Shown here piece after piece: positions 14,879-37,885 of a stretch of DNA of 64,000 nucleotides. Source of the stretch: an uncultured Alphaproteobacteria bacterium (GTDB lineage Bacteria; Pseudomonadota; Alphaproteobacteria; Reyranellales; Reyranellaceae). The notes below the pieces were generated by a model. It did not search any database. It had not been told where the DNA came from and saw only the letters and a list, made by a program, of their open reading frames with translations. A program made the position numbers and the translations under genes. The first letter of the stretch is position 1. Each line of letters begins with the position of its first letter. Location of the stretch: the NCBI GenBank assembly GCA_963755595.1, contig CAVWKP010000024.1, positions 87,525 to 151,524 on the forward strand, in the 5' to 3' direction.

Positions 14879-15942
14879 AGCCAGCGCTTGCGCTTGATCC
14901 AGAGGAACAGGGCGACCGTAATCGCGGCGGCCAGGCACCAGAACCAGATATAGCCATAGCCCCAGCTCAGCTCGGGCATGTTGCCCTTGTCGCGGTCGAA
15001 GTTCATGCCGTAGATGCCCGTGAGGAAGGTAAGCGGCATGAAGAACACGGTGATGACCGCGAGCGTCTTCATCACCTCCGATAGGCGGTTGTTGGCCTGC
15101 ATCAGGTAGACTTCCATAAGGCCGTTGCACATTTCGCGATAGCTCTCGACCAGGTCCAGCACCGCCACCGTGTGGTCGAAGCAGTCGCGCAGGTAGGTGC
15201 GCGTCTCGGGCATGATGAACGGCGTCTCGGGCCGCATGATCGCCAGCACCGTTTCGCGTTCGGCCCATTCGATGCGGTGGAAGGCCACCAGCGCTCGCCG
15301 CGCTGCATGGATGTGACCCAGCGATTCCTCGCTGCTGTGGCCCAGCGTCTCGTCCTCGAGTTCCTCGAGATGATTGGCCAGCCGCTCGATAATCGGGAAC
15401 TTCCGGTCGATGACCAGGTCGATCAGGGCGTAGACGAGATAGTCGACGCCGAACGTGCGCAGCCGCGAGCCCGCCGTCTGCACGCGATCGCGCACCGGCT
15501 TGAAGATGTCGAGCTTGTGGTCGTGGAAGGAGATGACGTAGTTCTCGCCGAAGAAGATGCTGACCTGGCGCAGCTTGATATCACCGTCCTCATAGGACGG
15601 ATCGTTGAGCACGATGAAGCCCTGGCCCTCGTAGAGATCGAGCTTGCCGCGCGAACTCGAATGGAACACGTCCTCGAGCGCCAGCGGGTGCAGGTTGAAG
15701 GCCATGCCGAGGTCGCGCAGCATTTCCGAGCTTGGCCGGCCGGCGACGTCGATCCATGTGTGCGCGGGCGTGCCGAGGTGGAAGCGGCACTCGTCGACCT
15801 CGACGCCGTGCAGCACCTCGCAGTCGTCGTTGGTGTATTCGACCAACGTGAAGTCGAGCGCCTCGTCGGGCACGGGGGCACGGCCGGCCAGCGTGCCCGG
15901 CGCAGTGCCCGGCTTGGTGTGGCGATGAACAACTCCGTCCAT
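14875..15942 (-). CDS. corA: Magnesium/cobalt transporter CorA
   Basis: LHPLALED, TGIYGMNF signature and MPELSWGYGY. Confidence 0.9.
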   Translation of the reverse strand: MDGVVHRHTKPGTAPGTLAGRAPVPDEALDFTLVEYTNDDCEVLHGVEVDECRFHLGTPAHTWIDVAGRPSSEMLRDLGMAFNLHPLALEDVFHSSSRGKLDLYEGQGFIVLNDPSYEDGDIKLRQVSIFFGENYVISFHDHKLDIFKPVRDRVQTAGSRLRTFGVDYLVYALIDLVIDRKFPIIERLANHLEELEDETLGHSSEESLGHIHAARRALVAFHRIEWAERETVLAIMRPETPFIMPETRTYLRDCFDHTVAVLDLVESYREMCNGLMEVYLMQANNRLSEVMKTLAVITVFFMPLTFLTGIYGMNFDRDKGNMPELSWGYGYIWFWCLAAAITVALFLWIKRKRWL

Positions 15943-23228: not shown

Positions 23229-23368
23229 CGGCCGTCGCGGCGTTCCTTCTCACGCTTGCGCTCCTCTTGGTCGGCCGCGGCGCCGCGATAGGCGCGCCAG
23301 GCCAGCACGAGAGCTGCCAGCGAGCAGAGGACACCGGCAATCATCGTCACAGGATCAAGGTCGGCCAT
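23225..23368 (-). CDS. Small membrane-anchored hypothetical protein
   Basis: One hydrophobic helix plus a charged tail; overlaps both neighbours. Confidence 0.45.
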
Positions 23369-24337
23369 GTTCGAAGAACCTCGCGACTGCCAGGTCGCTC
23401 CAGGGGCGTTGGTCGGTGGTGCCGTGGAAGCCGACGTGCCCGCCACGTGACGGCAGCAACGGTATCAGCGACTTGTTCGACCGCCAATCATAGCCGCTAT
23501 AGAGCGCACCGGGAATCCACGGATCATCAAGAGAAGCCAGCACGAGCGTCGGCACGCGGATGGCGGCCATGAAGCCGATCGGCTTGCAGCGCTCGTAGTA
23601 GTCGTCGGCGCCGGCAAAGCCGTGGCGCGGGGCGATGAAACGGTCGTCGTATTCCCGGATCGTGCCCGAGCCCAGGATGGCAGCGCGCTCGGCCGCCGAC
23701 AGCGCCGCGCCCTGCCCGGTCGCTTCGCGTTTCATCTGCCGGAGCAGGTAGCCGTGATAGAGCCTGTTGCGCGGCCGCATCATGCAATGGCACGTCGCCG
23801 CCAGATCGATCGGCGCCGAGACGGTGGCGGCAGCGGCGAGCGGCGCGCGCGAACCTTCTTCGCCGAGATATTTCAGCAGCATCGCGGCGCCCAGCGAAAA
23901 ACCGACCGCCACGATCCCGTCGCGCGTGATTTCCGACGGCAGCACCTCAAGCAGAGCGCGAAAGTCCTGGCTGCGACCGGCGTAATAGTGACCGCCGCAG
24001 ACGGCCGCGACGGGCCCGCGCCGCGCAGGTTCAGACGCAGCACCGGGTGCCCTCGATCCAGCAGGTGCCGAGCCATGCTGAGCACGTAGGCGCTGTCCTC
24101 GGCGCCGGTCAGGCCGTGGATGACAATGGCGAGCGGTCGTCCCGCCTTGGATGCCGCCGGACGGTCGAGCATGGCGAGCAGCGTATCGCCGGTGCCGTCG
24201 CGCAAGGCAAAGGACCGGCGCTCGCTGGTATGGGGCACAAGGTCCCCGCGCAGCGAGCGAAAACGATTGGCCAGGGTCTGGAGGTCGCCGCCCCACCAGG
24301 GAAAGCGCGGCTTGAAGGGCGGCAGCTCGAGGCTCAC
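23355..24337 (-). CDS. YheT-like alpha/beta hydrolase (frameshift ~24000)
   Basis: HGLTG, GFSLG nucleophile elbow, DDPWI and GGHVGF. Confidence 0.8.
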
Positions 24338-25341
24338 GCCTCTATACTAGTCACTCGTTCCAGGAATTTCTCTATGGCGAGGTTGCACCACGGCCGGCCG
24401 CTGGCGTCGCCATGGAAGCCGACATGGCCGCCGGTCTCCGGCATCACCGGCAGGAGCCAAGGGTTGTCGGACCACTTGAAGTCGCGATAGTGCTCGATCG
24501 GAATCCAGGGATCATCGCACGCCGCCAGCACCATGGTCGACACACGGATCTCGGGCATGAACTGCTTGGGCGCGCAGAGCGAGTAGTAATCCTCCGCGCC
24601 GCGAAAGCCGTAGCGTGGCGAGATGAAGCGGTCGTCGTAGTCGAACACCGAGCGCGCCGAGCGCACGATCTCGCGCTCCTCTTCCGAAAGGCGGGCTCCC
24701 TCCGCCAGCGTCTCCGTCTTCAGGCCGTTCAGGATGTAGCTGTGATAGAGCCAGTTGCGCGGCCGCAGCATGTGATGGCCGGTCTGCAGCAGGTCGATCG
24801 GCGCGCAAATTGAGGCGGCCGCGCGCAAGGGCGAGAAGTTGCCCTCCTCGCCGAGATATTTCAGCAGCATCGTGCCGCCCAGCGAGTAACCGATCGCGAC
24901 GATGCCGTTCTGCTTCAGGTCGTCGGGAATCTGCTGCAGCACGCGGCGAAAGTCGGCGGTGCGGCCGACATGATAGTGCTCGCCGCAATAGCGCCGCGAG
25001 GGGCCTGCGCCACGAACGTTGAGGCGCAGCACCGTGTAGCCGCGATACAGCAAATGACGCGCCGCACTCAGGATATAGACGCTGTCCTCGCAGCCGGTAG
25101 CACCGTGAATGAGGATCACCAGCGGCCGCGTGTCGTCGGGCCACTGGGGCGTGTCGAGCGAGCCGAGCAGGATGTCGCCGCTCCGATCGGCCATCGGAAA
25201 GCACACGCGCTCGCTGGTGTTCGGCGACAGGTCGGACATCGCCGGCTGCCACAGGAGCGCGAGGGTCTGCAGATCGGGCCCCCACCAGGGGAAGCGCGGC
25301 CGAAAGGGCGGCAGGTCGAGGGAATCGATGGACGGGGGCAC
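24334..25341 (-). CDS. YheT-like alpha/beta hydrolase (tandem paralog)
   Basis: HGATG, GYSLG, DDPWI and GGHVGFHG. Confidence 0.85.
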   Translation of the reverse strand: MPPSIDSLDLPPFRPRFPWWGPDLQTLALLWQPAMSDLSPNTSERVCFPMADRSGDILLGSLDTPQWPDDTRPLVILIHGATGCEDSVYILSAARHLLYRGYTVLRLNVRGAGPSRRYCGEHYHVGRTADFRRVLQQIPDDLKQNGIVAIGYSLGGTMLLKYLGEEGNFSPLRAAASICAPIDLLQTGHHMLRPRNWLYHSYILNGLKTETLAEGARLSEEEREIVRSARSVFDYDDRFISPRYGFRGAEDYYSLCAPKQFMPEIRVSTMVLAACDDPWIPIEHYRDFKWSDNPWLLPVMPETGGHVGFHGDASGRPWCNLAIEKFLERVTSIEA

Positions 25342-27419: not shown

Positions 27420-29874
27420 GTGCGGGCGCCCCCCGCACAACTCGTCGTGCGCATCGGCGCCGGCCTGGCAAAGCTGCTGGCGGCTCTTGTGCTTGCGCTG
27501 GCGATCTTCCTCGCCGGCACCTATTTCCAGGTGCGCGGCGCGCTGCCGCCCTATAGCGGCCACTTCGAGGCCAAGGGGCTGAAGGCGCCGGTCGAGATCG
27601 TGCGCGACAAGAACTCCGTGCCGCACATCATCGCCGGTTCCATCGAGGATGCCGCCTTCGGCCTCGGCTTCGTGCACGCGCAGGACCGTTTCTGGCAGAT
27701 GGAGTTGCTGCGCCGGGCGGGCCAGGGGCGCCTGGCGGAGATCTTCCCGCCCCGCCTGCTTGGCCCGGGCATCGTCAATACCGACCGCACCATGCGCGGG
27801 CCTGGGCCTCTATCGCGCCGCGTCGGACAGCGTGGGCGCGCTGTCGCCGGGCACGCGCACGGTCCTCGAGTCCTATGCCGCCGGCGTGAATGCCTGGATC
27901 GGCGGCCGGGATCGGCAATACGGCCTCGAGCTCACGCTGATCAAGCTGCTCTCCGGCGGTCGCTACCGGCCGGAGCCGTGGCAGCCGGCCGATTCCATGG
28001 TGTGGGGCAAGCTGATGGCGCTCAGCCTCGACGGCAACTGGCGCTCCGAACTGCTGCGCCTGCGCCTGTTGCGCAAGGTCGGCGAGGACAACCTCAAGTT
28101 CCTGATCGCCCATCCCAGCGAAAGCCGCGACGCCACCCTGTCGCTCGCCAACCAGGTGCTGAACGGCCTCGATCTCGACCGGCTGTATCGCGATACCGAC
28201 AATGCGGCCACCCGGAAGCGCGAGGCTTCCAACGAATGGGTGCTGTCGGGCGCCCATTCGGTCTCAGGCAAGCCGCTGCTCGCCAACGATCCGCATCTCG
28301 ATTTTTCTTTTCCCGGCACCTGGTATCTCGCGCGCATGGTCGGGCCCGGCTTCGACATCAAGGGCGCCTCCTCGCCGGGCTCGCCGGGCATCGTGCTGGG
28401 CCACAACGCCTCGATCGGCTGGGGCTTCACCACGACCGGTCTCGACAGCCAGGACCTGTTCATCGAGCGCGTCGATCCGACCGATCCCAACCGCTACATC
28501 ACGCCCGACGGCGCGCGCCCCTTCGCCGTGCGCGACGAGACGATCAACGTCCTGTGGGGCGACCCGGTGCACCTCAGGGTGCGCAACACGCGCCATGGCG
28601 TGGTGATCGACGATTTCATCGCCAGTCCCGAGGATTACTCGCCGGCAGGCCACGTGCTGGCCCTGCAGGCCACCGCCCTCGATGGCGCGGATACCTCGCT
28701 CGAAGGCTTCATGCGCATCACGCTGGCGCAGAACTGGGACGATTTCCTGGGCGCCGCGCGCAAGATCGTCAGCCCGATGCAGAACATGGTCTATGCCGAC
28801 ACCAGCGGCAATGTCGGCCTGATCTCGCCGGCGCGCGTGCCGATCCGGCGCAAGGGCGACGGCTCGATGCCCTCGCCGGGCTGGACGGGAGAATACGACT
28901 GGGCGGGCTTCGTGCCGTTCGACGAGCTGCCCAAGACCTACAATCCGCCGGGCGGCATCATCGTCAATGCCAATGCGCGCCTGGTGCCCGAGGATTATCG
29001 CCACTTCATCACCCGCGATTGGGCGCCGGCCTATCGGCAGCTCCGCGCCAACCAGCTGCTGCGCGAGGTCGAGCGCCATCCGGTCTACGGCATGATCGCC
29101 ATCCAGGCCGACATCCTGACGCCCGACGCCGCCGACATCCTGCCTGTGCTGTTGAAGCCCGCGGCGCGCAACCCGCGGGCCGCGCGGGTGATCGACATGA
29201 TGGGCCGCTGGAACCGCTTCATGCTGGCCAACCGGCCCGAACCGCTGATCTACACGGCCTGGCTGTTCGAGCTGGAGCGTCGCCTGGTCGCTCCCAAAGT
29301 GGGCGACGCGCTGTACGACTATCTGGCCGCGCCCAATGTATCGCTGATGCTGCGTATCCTGAGCGAGCGGCCGCAATGGTGCGACGATCCCGCCACGCCG
29401 GCGCCGGAAAGCTGCGACGACGCCATCGCCGCCGCGCTCGAACGCGCCCTCGACGGCATCGCCCGCCGCCAGGGACCGGAGATCGAGACCTGGCAATGGG
29501 GCCGCGAGCATGTCGCCGCGTTTCGCCATCCCCTGTTCGACCGCCTGCCGCTGTTGCGCAACCTCGCGTCGGTGCGTTTCCCGGCCGATGGCGGCGGCCA
29601 GACGCTCAATCGCGCCACGCCCGAATTCGGCGGCCCCGACCCGTTCGAGGCGGTCCATGGGGCGGGCTATCGCGCGGTCTATGATTTCAGCGACCTCGAC
29701 AACAGCCGCTTCGCCATACCGCTCGGCCAATCGGGCAACATGTTCTCGCCATGGGCGCGCAGCTTCGTCGACCGCTGGCAGAGCCTGCGCTACATCGAGA
29801 TCGCCGGCACCCAGCGCGAGATCGCCCGCGGCGCCGTCGGGACCGTGACGCTGGCGCCGCCGGCGGGGCGCTAA
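27420..29874 (+). CDS. Penicillin acylase family Ntn-hydrolase (frameshift ~27800)
   Basis: VPHI, HAQDRFWQM, ASNEW (Ntn Ser), LLANDPHL and GQSGN. Confidence 0.85.
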
Positions 29875-29908
29875 CAACACCGCCACGCGCCTGCGTGTGG
29901 CGGTGTTG
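29875..29908. repeat. 34-bp palindrome R1
   Basis: CAACACCGCCAC-GCGCCTGCGT-GTGGCGGTGTTG. Confidence 0.9.
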
Positions 29909-30072
29909 TCGTTCGGTCCGCGCACCCGAAGCCGGGCAAAGCGATTAGAGCGGCAGCGCTGGCCAATGTCATTGCAAGTTTATGACGGTTCCAACACAGC
30001 GAAAGGCTACCCAGGGGGCCAGTGGCCGCCCAGGGGTGAGGCCCGGGTTCTCTTCCCCGCCAACAGCACCAG

Positions 30073-30106
30073 CAACACCGCCACCATCTGCGGTGTGGCG
30101 GTGTTG
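30073..30106. repeat. 34-bp palindrome R2
   Basis: CAACACCGCCAC-CATCTGCGGT-GTGGCGGTGTTG. Confidence 0.9.
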
Positions 30107-30194
30107 TTGTTCGCTGGCGTGGGACCGGCGACCGCGCTCAGGTCAGGGGATCGCCGGTCGAGGATCGGATCCTTGAGCCTTGACGCGTCGCCGG

Positions 30195-30377
30195 CTAGCC
30201 GCGGACGTACGGAGGCGGCGGCGGCGGGGGCTGAGTGGCAACCGTCTGCGGCGCCGGCGGCGGGGGCTGCTGCGAGGAGCATCCCGCCGCGAGCAGCACC
30301 GCTGGAATCACGACTGCAACCAGCGCGGCACTCCGCAAATGCCTGAGGCGGGCCATTTTTTGGGCAACGTCGGACAT
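30195..30377 (-). CDS. Small proline-rich lipoprotein
   Basis: GGAGG RBS; lipobox LAAGC followed by SSQQPPPPAP...PPPPPPPYVRG. Confidence 0.65.
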   Translation of the reverse strand: MSDVAQKMARLRHLRSAALVAVVIPAVLLAAGCSSQQPPPPAPQTVATQPPPPPPPYVRG

Positions 30378-30667
30378 CCGATTCCTCCATAGCTGAGGGA
30401 CTGAAACACAACGCAACAACCGAAAGTGATCGAAGCAAACGTCGCAGGGAACCTTCCGGTTCCCACCCCGTAGCCAACATTATCGAGCTCTGGTCGCCGC
30501 CAGCCTCCCCGGCTGGGTTCGCGACGGCGGGCACGCCGAGGTCGACCAATGAAAACCTTGCTTTTGCCGCCGCGTGAAGCAAGCTCTCGGAACCGCGAAC
30601 GCCTGCCGCCATTATCTACCGGCGGCAGCGCAGGTCGCGGCGGAATCGCGCTGTCGGTGAGGCTACC

Positions 30668-32094
30668 TTGTTCCCATCCTGCAGCTTCTCGACGAGAAAC
30701 CTTCTGGCACGCGTCGGCCCGATTGCAGCCGCCGCGATTGCGCTCGCAGCCTGTAGCCCTGCCGAGCCGACAGTTCCCTCGGCGGACCAGGAGCCGGCAG
30801 CAGCCCTCGTGTCGGCCCCGTCCGCCCCGATGGCCGCGTCTGCCAACACCAAGATCGGCGAACTGATCGAGAGCGGGCCCAAGTCAGCCGTCGCGGGTGA
30901 ACGGCTGAACGTCGAACTGCTGCGACGCTTCTACGCCCGCCATGGTTTTGAACCCGTCTGGACGACCCGGCAGGCGCAAGCGAAGTCGCTGATGGATGCC
31001 GTGTTGCGCGCCGGCGATCACGGCCTCGCCCCTGAACGGTTTCACGCAGATTTGCTGCGCTCGCCGGCAACGTTGCCGACGCTCGACCGGGAACTGCTGC
31101 TGTCGGACGCCTTCCTGTCCTATGCCGACGCGCTGGCGCGCGGGGCCATGCCGATCGAGCGCCGACGAGATGACGAGATTTTGACGCCTGAGCCGATCGA
31201 TGTCGCCGCCGCGCTCGACGCCGCGATCGGCAGCCCCGATCCCGCGGCGGCGATCGAAGCGCTGGCACCGACGACGCCGACCTACCGGCTGCTGCGCCAG
31301 GCGTTGCAGAATTTTCACGCGGGCTTCCTGGTCGGCGGCAATGCCGCGACGACCCGCTTGCGCGAGATCGAGGTAAACCTCGAGCGCGAACGCTGGCTGC
31401 CGCGGCGGCTGCCGGCGGACCGCGTCTGGGTCAACGTTGCCGACGAGCGGGTACTGCTGTACCGCGACGATCAGGTGGTTTTCTCCTCGCGGGTCATTGT
31501 CGGCCAGGACGAGATCCGCAATCAGAGCCCGGAGTTCCAGGCCTCGATCGAGCGAATTTCGTTCAACCCGCCCTGGAACATCCCGGATTACATTGCCACC
31601 GAAGAGATCCTGCCGAAGACCAAGCAAGACCCGAATTACCTGGCGCGGCACGGCATGGTCATGCTGCCCAATGGCGTGCTGCAGCAGCTGGCGGGAGCCA
31701 CCTCAGGGCTCGGACAATTTCTGTTCGAGATGAACAACCGGTTCGACGTTTACCTGCACGATACCCCGTCGAAAAACCTGTTCAGCCGCGACGGCCGGCG
31801 CATCAGTCATGGATGCATCCGGGTGGAGAATGCAGAGCAGTTGGCCGCCCTGCTGATGCAGCAACCGCTCGATGCGATCAAACAAACGATCGCGACCGGC
31901 GAGACCACCCGTCCCGCTCTGCCCAAGCCCGTGCCGGTATTCGTGGTGTACGAGACCGCGTTCGCGGAGTTCGATGGCAGGTTGCAGTTTCGCGCGGATG
32001 TTTACGGACGCGATGCCGAGATCTGGCAGTACCTGGATCCGAAGGGGCGATGCGACGGGCGGAACGCGAGGCGCCCGGCCAACGCAGGCGCTGA
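30668..32094 (+). CDS. L,D-transpeptidase (YcbB/LdtD-like) lipoprotein
   Basis: Lipobox LAAC, VNLERERWLP, FNPPWNIP and YLHDTP...SHGCIRV. The true stop is probably 32094; the ORF-track extension to 32245 likely reflects an indel. Confidence 0.85.
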
Positions 32095-32153
32095 CCTCGA
32101 CACTGCAGGAGCCGACCGGGCACAAGAACCCGATTTGACCAGGCGCGCGCCGG

Positions 32154-32305
32154 CTAGGGATGACGCAGCCGCCACCGCAGGGCTTCGAGTTCCTCCCCCA
32201 TCGGCCGGCTGCCGGTTCCAGCGTGATGAACTTCACCAAGAATGATCGGCTGTGTGTTTCACCCTGGCGAGCGGACGTTTCCTGCTGGCGGGCGATGGCG
32301 ACTTG
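32154..32305 (-). pseudogene. Decayed duplicate of the helicase C-terminal extension
   Basis: AIARQQET...MGEELEALRWRLRHP* versus AIAHQQET...MGEELEALQWRLRRSDQ* at 32751-32920; the two parts are out of frame. Confidence 0.7.
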
Positions 32306-32374
32306 ATCCACCTCAAACCACCCGGCAGCGCGGCGGCGTAAGAGTGCGGGCAGCCAGCCGAGAGGGCGCAAGTC

Positions 32375-32704
32375 ATGAAATCCATCACCGACAGGGCCGA
32401 GGTCTCGGTCGACTTCCCGGACAAGACCTACATGGGCGCCTTCGGCAGGGAGTCGTCGTTCGACGTGAAGGTGGAGGCCGATGAGGTCCTGCTGCGCATC
32501 GTTCGTTCAGGTGCGGAGCGGCGCGAGATCGCGGTTCACCTGCACTACTACCTGCTGGCCGACATCCTCAAGGAACTGGGCCAGGGGCTTGCCAAGGAGG
32601 GCGACCTCGACGAGGCGCATCTCGAGGCCTTGCGTGACGGCGCCAGGGCGCTGACGCAATCGCTGTCGAGCAAGCCCTCGAAACGCAGCACGGCCAAGCG
32701 CTAG
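32375..32704 (+). CDS. Hypothetical protein (109 aa)
   Basis: Host-like codon usage; SVDFPDKTYMG...HLHYYLLADIL; the stop lies 7 bp before R3. Confidence 0.7.
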   Translation: MKSITDRAEVSVDFPDKTYMGAFGRESSFDVKVEADEVLLRIVRSGAERREIAVHLHYYLLADILKELGQGLAKEGDLDEAHLEALRDGARALTQSLSSKPSKRSTAKR

Positions 32705-32711
32705 CCGGCTG

Positions 32712-32746
32712 CAACACCGCCACTCCCCGGCATGGTGGCGGTGTCG
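32712..32746. repeat. Palindrome R3 (11-nt spacer, one arm mismatch)
   Basis: CAACACCGCCAC-TCCCCGGCATG-GTGGCGGTGTCG. Confidence 0.85.
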
Positions 32747-32750
32747 ATCC

Positions 32751-34063
32751 CTATTGGTCGGATCGACGCAGCCGCCACTGCAGGGCTTCGAGCTCCTCGC
32801 CCATCGCCGCCAGAACCTGCTCCGCCTCGGCCGTCGACTGCCCGGTCGAGGCCAGGATCCTCACCGTCTCCTGCTGGTGCGCGATGGCCCCCGTCAGCTC
32901 CCTGATCTTCTGATCGTCTTCCCCGCCAACAACACCGCCACCATCCGCGGAGTGGCGGTGTTGTTGTTCGGTGGCGGAGTTGGTCTCGGACGGCAGCGCC
33001 CAGTACCACAGCCCGCCCACGCCCTTCTTCGCGCTGAGGCCGAGATCGGTCTTGGCGCGCTCCATCGTGCGCCACCTGTAGCCGTTGGCGGCAGCCGCCG
33101 CTTTCACCTCGCGCGTGGCCACCGGTCCGCGGCCCAGCAGGTCCTGCAGGAAGGCCATCACCTCACCCCGCGCCTGCTCCTCCTCGTCCGGCGCCTCGAT
33201 CGCCATCAGCTGGTGCGCGCTGCCGTCCAGCCGCTGGCCCCACTCCACGCGCTGGGCGTGGAAGTCGTAGCCGGGCACCGGCACGCCCAAAAGGGTGTAC
33301 TCGATGCCGCCATGGTCGAGGCCGAGGTTGGACTTGGCGCGCACCAGTCGGTGCGGCAGCCGGCGGTCGCGCGGCTTCACGGTGGCCAGCACCACGCGCG
33401 CCACGGCGGCGAAGGCGATCGAGCCCATCACGCGCTCGAGCGGCTCGCGGCCGGTGCTGCCCTTGCTGAGGTGGGTGATCCCGAGCACCGCCACGTCGAG
33501 CTGCTCGGCCAGGCTCACCAGCGGCGCGAGGTCGCGCCTGCGTCTCGCTGTTCTTGTGGCTGTCGCCGTTGATCACCGCCACGACGGGATCGAGCACGAC
33601 CAGCTTGAGCTCGCGCATGAATTCCGCGCACTCGATCAGCCGCGGCAGGTCGGTGGCCGGATCGAACGGCCGGCTGCGGCCGCTCTCGTTCACCTCGCCG
33701 GCGAAGTGCAGGCGGCGCGGGTCACCGCCGGCCGCCAGGAAGCGCGGCAGCAGCGTGTCGGCGATGCCGTCCTCGCCGCTCCAGAACAGCACGTCGCCCG
33801 GCTCGGCCCTTTCGCTCCCGGGCGCTGCCAGCCCCGCCAGTCGGCCAGGCCGCGCCCGCGGTGATGGCGGCGGCGAGCGACACCGCGATGGTGGTCTTGC
33901 CGGTGCCGGGCGAGCCCGCCAGCAGCTGCAGCTTGCCGAGCGACAGCCAGTGCGGCCACAGCCAGCGCACCGCCTCCGGCTCGACCAGTCTGGCGCTCAC
34001 CAGCTGGAAGCCGGGCTTGCGCGCCGCGCGATCCGCCATCGCGAGGATGTTGTCGTCAGCCAT
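32751..34063 (-). CDS. RecA/RepA-like AAA (AAA_25) helicase with C-terminal winged-helix-like region, frameshifted
   Basis: VRWLWPHWLSLGKL, Walker A GSPGTGKTT, WSGED, Walker B LVVLDP, GITHLSK, GSIAFAAVAR and KSNLG, then GPVATREVKAAA..GYRWRTMERAK and WYWALP. Confidence 0.8.
32930..32963. repeat. 34-bp palindrome R4 (inside the helicase reading frame)
   Basis: CAACACCGCCAC-CATCCGCGGA-GTGGCGGTGTTG. Confidence 0.9.
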
Positions 34064-35003
34064 GGCTCCGCACCTCCGCGATTGAACCGAAATCCTTGAA
34101 GCGGCGCGGCGGCTTCGACCACGCCCGCCTCCTTGCCGGCCTGCCGCCAGCGGCCGATGCAGGCCTCGGCGGCCCGCGCGCCGGGCGCGTCGTTGTCGCT
34201 GTAACACCGTCGAGCGACTCGACGCCGCCCAGCACCGGGAAGCCCGCCAGGGCGCCGGCCGACAGGCACACCCAGACCGGGCGCGAAGCCGGCGGCCAGA
34301 ACAGCGAGGCCGTCCTCGATGCCTTCGGTGAGACGAAGCCCCATCGTCACGTCCTCATCGGGCGTGAGCTTCAGCACGGCGCCGCGGGCGGGACCGAGCA
34401 TCATCTTGTTGGGCGTGACACGCGCTTTGCCGAGGCCATCCGCCCGCAGGAAGGTCCGATGCACGCCGACCGGCTGATCGTCCGCGATGTCGCGCATCAG
34501 GCCGAGCATCGGCCGGCAGAGCGCGCCTCGCCGCGCGGGCAGGCAGGATGGAAGCGCAGAACCTCGTCGCTGCCGTCCGGCAGCTTCAGGCCGCGGTGGC
34601 GGAGGTAGGTCTCGACGATCGTGCCGCTCGCCGGACGCGCCTCGCGCCAGAGCTGCAGCGCCAGCTCATGAGGCTGGAGGCGCGTCCGCCGAGTGCTTGG
34701 TGCAGGCGCGTGAGCGGCGCGATCTCTCGCCACACCGACCGGCGCACCCAGCCACTCGCCGGCCCACTCGATCGCCTGGCGGAAGTCCCAGCCTGGATTG
34801 GCGAACTGGATCAGGTCCAGCAGGTCGCCGCCCTGGTCGGCCTCGAAGCTGTGCCAGGTGTGCCGCTCGACGTCGTACGACAGGCTGCCGCGGCTGCCCC
34901 AGCGCCAGTAGCGCGCACCCTGGGCCGTCGGCTGGCCCAGCAGCTCGACCACCAGCCGGTCAGAACTGGCGGCCAGCTGAGCCTTCAGCGCCGCAATATC
35001 CAT
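34056..35003 (-). CDS. Toprim-domain primase (plasmid/phage type, DUF7146-like), frameshifted
   Basis: GGDLLDLI, ALQLWREARP..GTIVETYLRHRGL, LRFHPACP, GVHRTFL, KMMLG, TEGIEDGLA and DND; the stop overlaps the helicase start. Confidence 0.8.
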
Positions 35004-35042
35004 CCCTCCGCCCTCCTCTTCCAGGCGTTATTGGATGAACCC

Positions 35043-35087
35043 CTTGTACGTCTACCGTATATACGAAGTCAAGAACATTTGACGAAC
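35043..35087 (-). promoter_or_regulatory. Putative primase promoter with alphaproteobacterial LexA box
   Basis: Minus strand reads GTTC-GTCAAAT-GTTC (35087-35073) directly abutting TTGACT (-35), then an 18-nt spacer containing the palindrome CGTATATACG, then TACAAG (-10-like). Confidence 0.65.
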
Positions 35088-35099
35088 ATCGCAATCCAA

Positions 35100-35133
35100 C
35101 AACACCGCCACTCGCCACAGGGTGGCGGTGTTG
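35100..35133. repeat. 34-bp palindrome R5
   Basis: CAACACCGCCAC-TCGCCACAGG-GTGGCGGTGTTG. Confidence 0.9.
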
Positions 35134-35157
35134 TTGTTGGCGGGAGGGGTTGGCCCG

Positions 35158-35191
35158 CAACACCGCCACTCCCCGCGCGGTGGCGGTGTTG
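35158..35191. repeat. 34-bp palindrome R6
   Basis: CAACACCGCCAC-TCCCCGCGCG-GTGGCGGTGTTG. Confidence 0.9.
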
Positions 35192-35332
35192 TCCGGTGGG
35201 TGCCGGCGAGGACGTTCGCCCGGAATGCGCGGACGGCGGCAGCTGGTCAGGAAGCGGGCGTGCTAGCCGCCACGGGTCGAATCCCATGCGCCGTGTGGGC
35301 TACACTTCCCATGCTTTTGAAGGAGACAATTA

Positions 35333-35821
35333 GTGCCTCTGCTTCGTTTGGCTGCTGCGGCACTCGTCGCCTTCGGGCTCGACAGGCTTTCAAAGATCCT
35401 GATCGTGCACTGGCTTAACCTGCCATCACTGGAAGTTATCGATGTACTGCCGCCTTACCTCGTACTGAGAATGGCTTGGAACAAGGGCATAAATTTTGGG
35501 CTCTTCAGCATCTACGACAGCCAGTGGTTCTTGGTAGCCTCTGCACTTCTTATCTCTTTTTTGTTGATGGTATGGATACGCACCAAGCAGGGCTGGATAC
35601 AGCCGTTGGCCATCGGAGCAATTGTTGGTGGAGCACTCGGCAACGCCTTTGATCGAGTAAGATATGGAGCCGTCGCCGACTATCTCAATATGAGTTGCTG
35701 TGGCATCAAAAACCCAACGTCGTTTAACGTTGCCGACATTTCTGTCTTTGGTGGTGTCTTGGTCTTGATTGTAGGAGGCTGGATCGGTTCGCGGACTACG
35801 ACGACACACTCGCACAAGTAG
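35333..35821 (+). CDS. lspA: Lipoprotein signal peptidase II (AT-richer than host)
   Basis: DRLSK, NKGINFG, GGALGNAFDR, VADYL and FNVAD motifs; GAAGGAG RBS. Confidence 0.9.
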   Translation: MPLLRLAAAALVAFGLDRLSKILIVHWLNLPSLEVIDVLPPYLVLRMAWNKGINFGLFSIYDSQWFLVASALLISFLLMVWIRTKQGWIQPLAIGAIVGGALGNAFDRVRYGAVADYLNMSCCGIKNPTSFNVADISVFGGVLVLIVGGWIGSRTTTTHSHK

Positions 35822-35874
35822 GGCGGACCGGCTCGAGGGCACGCGGACTAGTCGAGATGGGGGAGTTCGGACCG

Positions 35875-35908
35875 CAACACCGCCACTCCCCGCGCGGTGG
35901 CGGTGTTG
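35875..35908. repeat. 34-bp palindrome R7 (identical to R6)
   Basis: CAACACCGCCAC-TCCCCGCGCG-GTGGCGGTGTTG. Confidence 0.9.
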
Positions 35909-35911
35909 CCC

Positions 35912-36680
35912 CTAGTTCACCGCGCCGCCGGGCACCGCGTCGACGGTGACCTCGATCGGCCGCTGCAGCTGGTCGGGGTTGAGCGCCAGCGGTTGCGCGA
36001 GGCGATAGAGCGTCGAGGCGCCGAGCGAGAGCCGCACGTCGAGCACGAGCTTGCGGTCCCGGAGCTTCATGTCGGGCGGCACGCGCAGGCCGAAGGGGAT
36101 GGGGTTGACCCAGCTCGAGCGCGCCACGGCTTCGGTGAGCAGCGCCGGCGGATTGGTCGCCTGGTCGAAGAGCTGCACGCGGAGCTCGGCACCCGGCGCC
36201 AGCTGTGCCTTGGGGCGGTAGTAGGCCTGGCCGCGCAGCACCAGGGCCGGCGGCAGGTCCTCCTTGCGCTGGGGCTGCAGGTCGGTCCAGGTGAAGCTCA
36301 CGGCCGAGCCCTTGTCGTCGATCAGGCAGCGGAAGCGCAGCCCCACTACCTCGCCGCGGCGGCGGTTGCGCGCGCCGATGCCGGTGACGATCGCGACGAT
36401 GTGGGCGCCCTCCACCGTCTGGTCGGTGCGCTCGACGTTCATCCAGGGAACGCCCATCAGGGTGAGCAGCGGAAAGGCGTTGTCGGCCTCGCGTATCTCG
36501 GCGCCGAACTTGCCGGCACAGCGCGACAGCAGCGGCGAAGAGATGCCTCCCTGGTTCCGAAATTGCTCGTCCTGCGCCTGTCCGGCAGACGGCAGGCCGA
36601 GGCCGGCCGCAAGCGCCGCCCAGGAAACAAACGCGGCAACGAACCGGGCGCGCCGGCCCGACGGGAATGCGAGTCTCCAT
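35912..36680 (-). CDS. Secreted protein with C-terminal YbaY/YscW-like domain (5' frameshift)
   Basis: LRGQAYYRPKAQLAPGAELRVQLFD...PIPFGL resembles the YbaY pilotin domain; a signal-like N-terminus is in frame upstream of 36457. Confidence 0.6.
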
Positions 36681-36683
36681 GGC

Positions 36684-36989
36684 TTACAGCGGCGTCAGCG
36701 ACGGGTTCTTGTCGCAGGCCTTGTCGTTGTCCTTGACCACCCAGATCGGCCGCTTGCCCGGCCACTCCGTGCACGTGAGCGACGACTGCTGGCGCGAGCA
36801 GAACGAGGCGCCGAGCGAATAGATCTGGCCGGCCCAGAAGCAGTAGGTCTGCTTGTCCTCTGGCGTCAGGTTCCCATAGGCCGGCGGAACCCTGAGGATG
36901 TTCTGGCTCGGAACCTGGTCCTGCTGTGCAGCCGCGCCGAGCGGCAGCCCCAAAGGCGCGATGGACAGTGCGATCGCTAACGCCCGCAT
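36684..36989 (-). CDS. Small secreted Cys-rich hypothetical protein
   Basis: Signal peptide; YCFWAGQIYSLGASFC. Confidence 0.6.
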   Translation of the reverse strand: MRALAIALSIAPLGLPLGAAAQQDQVPSQNILRVPPAYGNLTPEDKQTYCFWAGQIYSLGASFCSRQQSSLTCTEWPGKRPIWVVKDNDKACDKNPSLTPL

Positions 36990-37024
36990 GATCTCTCCCC
37001 CGTTATCCGCTCGACGCGGCCCCT

Positions 37025-37885
37025 CTAGCGAGGCTTGTCGCCGGCCAGCGTAATGCGGTGCATGACGCGGCGGAAGCCGTGATAGTCGTTGACCGGATTG
37101 TGCAGCGCGCAGCGATTGTCCCAAAGCGCGATCGAGCCCGACGCGCCCATGGAAGCGGCAGGTGAATTCCGGCCGGGTCTGGTGGTCGCACAGGAACTCG
37201 AGCAGGGGCGCGCTCTCCTTCTTCGCTCAGCCCGTTGAAGCGCGCGGTGTGCGCGAGGATTGACGTAGAGCGCCTTGCGGCCGGTCTCGGGATGGGTGCG
37301 CACGACCGGATGCTCGGCCTCGTAGTCCTCTTGGGTGTGGCCCTCGCGTCCGCCTGCTTCAGCGCGATCCTCGCGGGTCTTGCGTGGCGTCGGCCTTGGC
37401 CGAGAGTTGACGCCGATCAAGCCCTCGAGCAGTCTGCTTCATGCCGTCCGACAGCGCCTCGTAGGCGAGATACTGGTTGGCGAACAGCGTGTCGCCGCCG
37501 TAGGGCGGCACTTCGCGCGCCAGCAGCATGTGCCCATCGGCGGGTCCGTCAGATAGGTCGTGTCGGAATGCCAGATGCCGCCGAAATTGTTGCGCTCGTG
37601 CTCGAGCTTGACGACCGGCGTGATCTTCGGGCAACTCGGGCAGGCCTTTGAGCTGAACGGATACTCGATCGGCTCGCCGAACTTCCTGGCGAAGGCGAGC
37701 TGCTGCGCCGGCGTCACCTTCTGGTCGCGCAGGAAGATCACCAGATGCTCGAGCAAGGCATGGCGCACCTCGGCCACGATCTCGGCGTCGAGGTCGCGCG
37801 CCATATCCACGCCCCCGATCTCGGCGCCGAGCGCGCCGGCGATCGGCTTCACCTCGATGTGGCGGTAGTTGCGCATGGTGCTCAT
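37025..37885 (-). CDS. TauD/TfdA 2-oxoglutarate-dependent dioxygenase (several frameshifts)
   Basis: LGAEIGGVD, WHSDTTY, GGDTLFAN, HPVVRTHPETGRKAL, WDNRCALH and RVMHR. Confidence 0.85.

Follow-up and report, generated by a model that had tools for sequence, protein, structure and literature searches.

The window analyzed here is a stretch of 64,000 nucleotides from an uncultured alphaproteobacterium of the family Reyranellaceae (assembly GCA_963755595.1, contig CAVWKP010000024.1, positions 87,525 to 151,524). At positions 29875 to 35908, it holds an island in which a helicase gene, a primase gene, and several cargo genes are partitioned by seven copies of one palindromic site. The locus raises the question of what these sites are, which protein acts on them, and how unrelated genes came to lie between them. 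Here, we propose that the sites are copies of an inverted site that belongs to the helicase gene. Our best reading is that the island is a replication module of satellite origin that is fixed in the chromosome; copies of its replication origin would enclose captured genes and would have spread in the manner of REP (repetitive extragenic palindromic) elements.

The inverted sites of the island

A pattern search of the window found six exact copies of CAACACCGCCAC-N10-GTGGCGGTGTTG, starting at 29875, 30073, 32930, 35100, 35158, and 35875. The seventh copy listed by an earlier note on this DNA, R3 (32712–32746), has an 11-nt spacer and one mismatch in the right arm, so that all seven are found where that note had placed them. 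No exact site arose in 100 shuffles.

29875..29908, no strand: R1, inverted site pair at the left island end, with a 0-bp gap to the acylase stop codon
30073..30106, no strand: R2, which with its flanks is a 51-bp, 92% copy of the R4 region
32712..32746, no strand: R3, 5 bp beyond the helicase stop codon
32930..32982, no strand: R4 with a third arm (32971–32982, one mismatch), in the helicase frame directly after the winged-helix codons
35100..35133, no strand: R5, exact site
35158..35191, no strand: R6, which with three flanking bases is a 37-bp exact direct repeat of R7, around lspA
35875..35908, no strand: R7 at the right island end, with a 3-bp gap to the stop codon of the YscW-like gene

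The outer sites abut the stop codons of the two convergent host genes, with the gaps of 0 and 3 bp first reported. In the whole of the window's own assembly (G000; 5.13 Mb, 85.8% complete), 13 of the 14 exact arms and all six perfect pairs lie inside the island, which extends to the genome the earlier observation that the window has no further copy. No Rfam match was found in 29500–37200 and no tRNA in the window.

The spacers are 9 to 11 nt long, with 47 different sequences among 56 sites. In the window, only R6 and R7 share a spacer, and most adjacent island sites, as well as the two outer ones, differ. At the loci fetched from a relative (G002, described below), with up to three arm mismatches allowed, the arm pairs are exact in 42 of 62 sites while the spacers vary. 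These features bear on the option of loxP- or pdif-like sites raised in the earlier note, in which a tyrosine recombinase whose gene lies elsewhere would cross over at the 12-10-12 units, with the intervals as pdif-like cassettes. The arm-spacer-arm geometry, the identity of R6 and R7, and the polar spacer ends (C...GA, partly a product of the chosen orientation) are consistent with it, and Phage_integrase matches occur elsewhere in the two genomes (8 and 9). Recombinases of the loxP/pdif type, however, need matching spacers of 6 to 8 nt, and both the length and the diversity of the spacers, which differ even between most neighbors in the island, argue against this option. In addition, members of the helicase family carry their own, different inverted pair at the corresponding position (48 of 65 loci). 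We therefore regard recombinase sites as very unlikely.

The palindromes fold well (z −4.4 to −5.9); TTGTTG comes after several of them, and two terminator-like matches were found at R5. The palindromes might hence be kept at the RNA level, as terminators or mRNA-stabilizing hairpins between convergent genes. In contrast to what this would predict, the arm sequence itself is invariant and not just its pairing, the spacer length is held at 9 to 11 nt, as fits the binding of a protein to double-stranded DNA, and one copy lies within a coding region. A role as RNA elements thus appears hardly credible.

The helicase, the primase, and the origin-position rule

The helicase and the primase are encoded between the sites.

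32751..34063, minus strand: Rep-type helicase, comprising a RecA-fold AAA_25 ATPase, a predicted winged helix, a disordered linker encoded by R4, and a helical hairpin; frameshifted
34056..35003, minus strand: Toprim primase (DUF7146 and Toprim_3; PHROG 510), overlapping the helicase start; frameshifted
35067..35087, minus strand: primase promoter region, with a TTGACT hexamer resembling a −35 element (35067–35072) abutting a GTTC-N7-GTTC box (35073–35087); kept in G002

The structure model of the helicase shows a RecA-type ATPase followed by a winged helix (residues ~298–355), a disordered linker, and a helical hairpin. When the winged-helix domain was modeled in isolation, the predicted fold had a predicted local distance difference test (pLDDT) score of 84.6, and its top fold matches were all winged-helix DNA-binding domains (probability 0.85–1.0 for the ten best; winged-helix matches at E 0.05–0.3, none at E ≤ 0.001). 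The full-length protein retrieved RecA/Rad51/DnaB folds in the fold search and P-loop matches only in a sequence search of solved structures. Toprim_3 is weak in the frameshifted primase of the window and is above the cut-off in the intact G002 copy. The gene modules proposed earlier were largely confirmed by Pfam, except that what had been taken for a "small helical domain" in the R3–R4 interval belongs to the helicase as its C-terminal helical hairpin, R4 lying inside the helicase reading frame.

At least 1262 relatives of the helicase were found. An inverted 9-mer pair lies within 230 nt after the winged-helix codons at 48 of 65 helicase loci, compared with 27 of 198 control windows inside genes. 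The motif differs between family members, and loci with the same motif mostly share their recognition-helix residues. The Reps of Staphylococcus aureus pathogenicity islands (SaPIs) bind iterons just downstream of rep via a C-terminal winged helix (PMC9371898; 10.64898/2026.10.17.759575), and semi-palindromic iterons are described for RepA of PLEs (elements resembling phage-inducible chromosomal islands) (PMC7145576, PMC8263062). Because the family members carry their own inverted pair at the same spot, with a motif that tracks the recognition helix, the repeats of the island are very probably copies of the inverted site of the helicase gene and would serve as binding sites (iterons) of its predicted winged helix. 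This bears out the earlier suggestion that the sites belong with the primase and helicase of the island. By analogy with the SaPI system, they are likely to be the replication origin of this pair.

Many relatives of the helicase are satellite-like. Many of those in IMG/VR are on contigs of 10 to 15 kb, and a P4-type integrase was found in the fetched locus for 19 of 55 IMG/VR relatives. Among the seven annotated genus loci of the window's helicase family, three have an integrase and four have none. The nearest sampled relative is an integrase-linked Rep of G002, which has the related site GAAGACCGCCA (FastTree support 0.88). Three orphan site arrays were found in another genome, G003. A class-wide profile search gave 4 of 401 genomes, too few for a dispersal test outside the genus.

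The GTTC-N7-GTTC pattern is what we take to be the alphaproteobacterial LexA (SOS) box. The same pattern precedes the host recA and lexA genes, and 47 such boxes occur in the G000 genome. Since the same boxes precede recA and lexA, the box of the primase was read as one of the LexA/SOS type, and the primase–helicase pair is likely to be switched on by DNA damage through it. A sigma-70 scan found no full promoter at the primase promoter region. The window contains a second match to the pattern, in the form GAAC-N7-GAAC, at 15653–15667.

The same island in a relative

G002 belongs to the same genus, and its acylase is 92% identical. It has an island at the same junction with six sites, in which both the primase (313 aa) and the helicase (435 aa) are intact. 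Its cargo is different: a 279-aa ORF (open reading frame) replaces the lipoprotein-like ORF, the transpeptidase, and the 109-aa ORF, and an OmpA-family gene replaces lspA. The comparison of the acylase/YbaY-like junction in relatives that the earlier note had suggested therefore gave the same junction with different cargo, and its description of the cargo between the sites as cassette-like holds. Pfam found no integrase among 14 ORFs of the window, as the earlier note had reported for the island, and none was found in the G002 island either. No AlpA/Stl regulator or packaging-interference gene was found among the ORFs scanned in the two islands. On a metagenome contig whose helicase is 82% identical, the same internal site and a half site after the stop codon are followed by yet another gene.

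Between G000 and G002, the ATPase has a dN/dS of 0.27 with a dS of 0.22, and the primase a dN/dS of 0.34 with a dS of 0.38; the dN/dS of the winged helix is 0.52, and three neighboring genes have dS values of 0.16–0.19. Because dN/dS is below 1 and the dS of the ATPase is near that of the neighboring genes, the most likely history is that the pair was passed on at this position, with purifying selection acting on it, and that the cargo turned over.

These values, together with the single copy at a fixed locus and the SOS box in both genomes, would also fit backup origins domesticated by the host, in which the LexA-controlled pair restarts or amplifies replication after DNA damage and nearby cargo benefits. 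Run-off replication from a phage-derived helicase locus in Bartonella (PMC2697382) offers a precedent. However, the Bartonella locus is conserved across its genus, whereas the present site was found in just 2 of 130 genomes and is dispersed in one of them, and the gene is frameshifted in G000. We consider this explanation improbable.

Two further observations were set aside. A contig joint 29868→35917, with 21 letters on its shorter side, would mark an empty site but did not recur when a narrower stretch was used. Differences in read depth between cargo and helicase were not used, as the runs mix organisms; none of the runs contained half of the island's words.

Occurrence and dispersal of the site

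A search of 130 family genomes with up to two mismatches allowed gave the site in 2, namely those that hold the helicase at 83% identity or more; these co-occurrence counts, like those of the second family described below, are among kin and not independent. An exact scan of a 185,579-species collection gave only G002 and one hairpin (L037), which was taken as unrelated because it has a stem with 21-bp arms and no helicase within 8 kb. The exact site had no match in IMG/VR, and the 16-nt D motif had 22 single matches there.

G002 contains 42 exact sites at 20 loci (the island and 19 others), mostly as doublets or triplets; with up to three arm mismatches, 62 sites were counted in 26 fetched loci. 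Sixteen of the 25 dispersed loci could be aligned to G000 on both flanks, and G000 has no site there. They are insertions or replacements of 339–5215 bp, with a gap of −9 to 732 bp on the G000 side, and the 16 junctions show no constant target duplication. Some of the sites enclose foreign genes. A GrpB gene, which is single-copy and 93% identical in the two genomes, lies between sites in G002 and at a different locus in G000. At one dispersed G002 locus, a 260-aa ORF lies between degenerate site clusters. The earlier note had reckoned with a dispersed REP unrelated to primase–helicase loci; the motif is indeed dispersed genome-wide in G002, but among the 130 family genomes searched it was found in only two, both of which have the helicase.

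The dispersal has a possible explanation that does not need Rep as the mover. The sites would be Rep's origin but would have traveled as passengers, moved by a transposase acting in trans on carriers resembling MITEs (transposable elements of miniature size with inverted repeats) or by a REP-like process, and host recombination between the 34- to 50-bp repeats would swap the cargo. Four subfamilies of dispersed units have common YTAG...CTAR ends, and one of them has a duplicated TAG at the G000 empty site. Nine of 12 G002 matches to this end motif are at site-bearing loci, judging from their coordinates. By a rough heuristic, the genes on either side of 12 of 16 inserts are convergent, a setting that has been described for REPs (PMC3184786), and the exact 37-bp repeat at R6 and R7 is what such recombination could use. 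On the other hand, the target duplication is not constant, 10 of the 25 loci lack any other module tested, and the unit ends match neither of two insertion sequences (ISs) compared. The Y1 transposase family (PF01797) gave one weak match per genome, on other contigs than the island. Passive copies should also decay, yet most arm pairs have remained exact while their spacers differ. We regard passenger transport as a tentative alternative, short of probable.

Proposed mechanism

We return to the reading in which Rep itself spreads its sites. A satellite module of primase, rep, and origin would have lost its integrase and come under LexA control, which we consider the most likely starting point. 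On induction, Rep would bind the inverted sites, load, and start copying in place with the primase, as deduced from SaPI. Strands that start or stall at the sites could then be re-inserted by host repair or template switching, which fits the lack of a fixed target duplication. This would duplicate sites, leave genes trapped between a pair of them, and place orphan origins elsewhere. To this mechanism as a whole, namely an SOS-controlled replication module without integrase in which local copying at the sites duplicates sites, traps genes, and seeds orphans, we assign a probability of roughly one half. A causal role of Rep in the spread of the sites is, in our judgment, an even bet.

Several points weigh against this mechanism. 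G000 has the genes but no dispersed sites, and dispersal is thus seen in G002 alone. Many of the dispersed copies are in composite units of 350–480 bp whose ends have YTAG...CTAR in common, and other repeat modules accompany the sites at 15 of the 25 dispersed loci; both features point to another mover. The sites of other family members are mostly local, with two copies for the integrase-linked Rep of G002 and a single exact pair for each of two Reps without integrase. Seven other genus members of the window's helicase family were checked for the SOS box, and all of them lack it. SaPIs and phage-inducible chromosomal islands (PICIs) have an AT-rich center between opposed iterons, whereas the spacer here is a GC-rich 10-nt sequence; the GC minimum in any 20-mer is 0.50 near R3 and 0.45 near R4. 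No circle, inversion, or copy-number peak was shown, the analysis being confined to assembled contigs.

The frameshifts in the window's genes belong with these points. Host genes of G000 and G002 differ by 140 frameshifting indels in 92.6 kb of coding sequence, or ~1.5 per kb (a count from which the identity filter removed the primase). For the window's genes, the frameshift rate is not clearly higher, and the frameshifts are therefore indistinguishable from assembly errors; broken genes in the window have to be read with care. For the same reason, a dead Rep was dropped as an explanation for the missing dispersed sites of G000.

Few dispersed bacterial repeat families have a known origin and mover, such as REPs with REP-associated tyrosine transposases (RAYTs) and MITEs with their ISs. 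Here, a repeat family is traceable to one gene, as its unit is the site that a single resident replication initiator carries at the origin position; in the genus, a second family is paired in the same way. If Rep is the mover, it would provide a route of gene capture and relocation that is coupled to DNA damage and missed by mobilome scans based on integrases and transposases. As a more speculative extension, there may be a class of mobile DNA without integrase or transposase, in which SOS-induced AAA_25 initiator-helicases of satellite origin, each paired with an iteron site specific to it, copy their origins and the enclosed genes to new chromosomal places. Such a class could conceivably be a helicase-based counterpart of the RAYT/REP system that builds intergenic mosaics and moves accessory genes in these alphaproteobacteria, although we hold this to be doubtful at present.

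Cargo genes and flanks

The intervals between the sites hold the following features besides the helicase and primase genes.

30195..30419, minus strand: cargo, 74-aa proline-rich ORF, lipoprotein-like by reading of the sequence; not in the G002 island
30668..32245, plus strand: cargo, L,D-transpeptidase (Scaffold and YkuD, Pfam); not in the G002 island
32162..32203, no strand: 42-bp, 93% duplicate of the helicase 3′ end (32765–32806), followed by ~80 bp that are also found downstream of the G002 helicase
32375..32704, plus strand: cargo, 109-aa ORF with no Pfam, PHROG, or NCBIfam match
35333..35821, plus strand: cargo, signal peptidase II (lspA), 51.5% GC compared with ~69% for the acylase; an OmpA-family gene is here in G002

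The duplicate at 32162–32203 would be a scar of an earlier rearrangement. Over the 14 ORFs, Pfam identified the L,D-transpeptidase, AAA_25, DUF7146, signal peptidase II, penicillin amidase, and YscW.

The neighborhood of the YscW-like gene and the acylase is not usual for the genus. Among the acylase loci fetched, the two genes adjoin only in G000 and G002, and no YscW-like gene was found within 1.5 kb of the acylase at any of the 28 others, some of which are shortened by contig ends. Several of these 28 carry the end of a TauD-like gene instead, by reading of the sequence. The YscW-like gene and a 99-aa ORF beyond R7 (window 35912–36983) are common to G000 and G002, and at the corresponding right island edge of G002 there is a stretch that looks like a decayed site. 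The variable region may thus extend on the right to about 37020. At lower coordinates in the window (23355–25341), there are two tandem paralogous ORFs that resemble alpha/beta-hydrolases by reading of their translations, one of which is frameshifted.

A second helicase family and other repeats

A second AAA_25 family, with a C-terminal helix-turn-helix (HTH), was found in 22 of 114 genus genomes. Most copies inspected stand alone behind the stop codon of a host gene, with an iteron-like module and a promoter in front. Three P4-type integrase queries had no match in the 20 loci fetched, 19 of which have the gene; the 102 ORFs scanned with Pfam, largely from 12 loci of this family, included no recombinase or transposase. 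One site type occurs in 10 genomes, all within the 22, and brackets cargo in G118 and G061; another core occurs in 21 genomes, of which 18 are within the 22. A perfect SOS box was found at 9 of 35 loci.

G000 itself has two members of this family, at L176:3960-5700 (G000:C4:36962-39728) and L177 (G000:C18:290758-291030). The L176 copy has GTCTCACCGTCTCA-type sites on both sides and a 181-aa cargo ORF, and is shortened by other genes. At L252:6199-6420 (G118:C2), two identical 40-bp sites of the second family surround a copy of a 120-bp genomic repeat, an arrangement that, judged from its layout, is a site duplication around a captured piece. At L256:4273-7765 (G002:C6), a pair resembling a cyclic-oligonucleotide-based antiphage signaling system (CBASS; DncV-type cyclase and Cap15) and a JAB-domain gene lie directly 3′ of a lone AAA_25 gene.

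The motif GAACTTCTAATGACCAAA, followed ~25 bp on by a TATNAT-like hexamer, is present in 56 copies in G000, 89 in G002, and 4 in G132, and in none of 111 other genus genomes. Over its first 15 nt, the motif is GAAC-N7-GACC (43 copies), which differs from the SOS box by one base, and the module may be a mobile SOS-responsive promoter. Many more intergenic repeat families make up mosaics in G000, where 88 clusters have at least two of 22 motifs tested. Among these families are a 120-bp palindromic repeat (one 15-nt motif of which occurs 39 times) and a module whose GATGCCGATGGC core is constant while its iteron-like arms are exchangeable.

Comparison with known systems

In the open-access literature (subscription papers and supplements lay outside this search), we found no account of a resident helicase whose origin sites are multiplied around cargo and dispersed by it or along with it. 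The missing integrase alone is not new, because ~20% of marine satellite-like elements are without an identified one (PMC9618062).

Pairs of arm-spacer-arm sites that partition genes are familiar from pdif modules, loxP/FRT, and integron cassettes, and there too the cargo differs between strains. Here, no cognate recombinase was found among the ORFs scanned, the spacers vary in sequence and length, and the arm is the repeat of the resident helicase. As regards MITEs, some G002 units have YTAG...CTAR ends in common with one another; none was seen for the island itself, and there is no constant target duplication over the 16 junctions. The Bartonella run-off locus likewise consists of a phage-derived helicase and an origin left in an alphaproteobacterial chromosome; that locus, which has a single origin and is linked to a gene transfer agent, is conserved throughout its genus (PMC2697382), whereas the present module is patchy and its origin has been multiplied.

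The genome pattern of G002 resembles that of RAYTs and their REP doublets (REPINs). In that system (PMC3116915), as here, a single-copy gene lies between copies of a palindromic repeat that is specific to the gene variant; the repeat is dispersed between genes mainly as doublets, a pattern seen here in G002 and not in G000. The partner there is an HUH (Y1) tyrosine transposase and here a primase–helicase. Moreover, the sites here have non-pairing spacers of 9–11 nt, bracket cargo genes, and number in the tens, not hundreds.

The closest functional parallel is the replication module of SaPIs and PICIs. The primase gene is followed by a Rep helicase gene with a predicted C-terminal winged helix and then by opposed repeats at the 3′ end of rep, as in those islands. 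The differences lie in the helicase, which has a RecA fold (AAA_25) here and belongs to superfamily 3 or 6 (SF3/SF6) there; in the origin, which is copied up to seven times in the island and found at 19 more loci of G002; in the direct SOS box on the primase promoter; and in the integrase, att site, regulator, and packaging gene, none of which the island has. The element thus works like a SaPI/PICI replication module but is no PICI.

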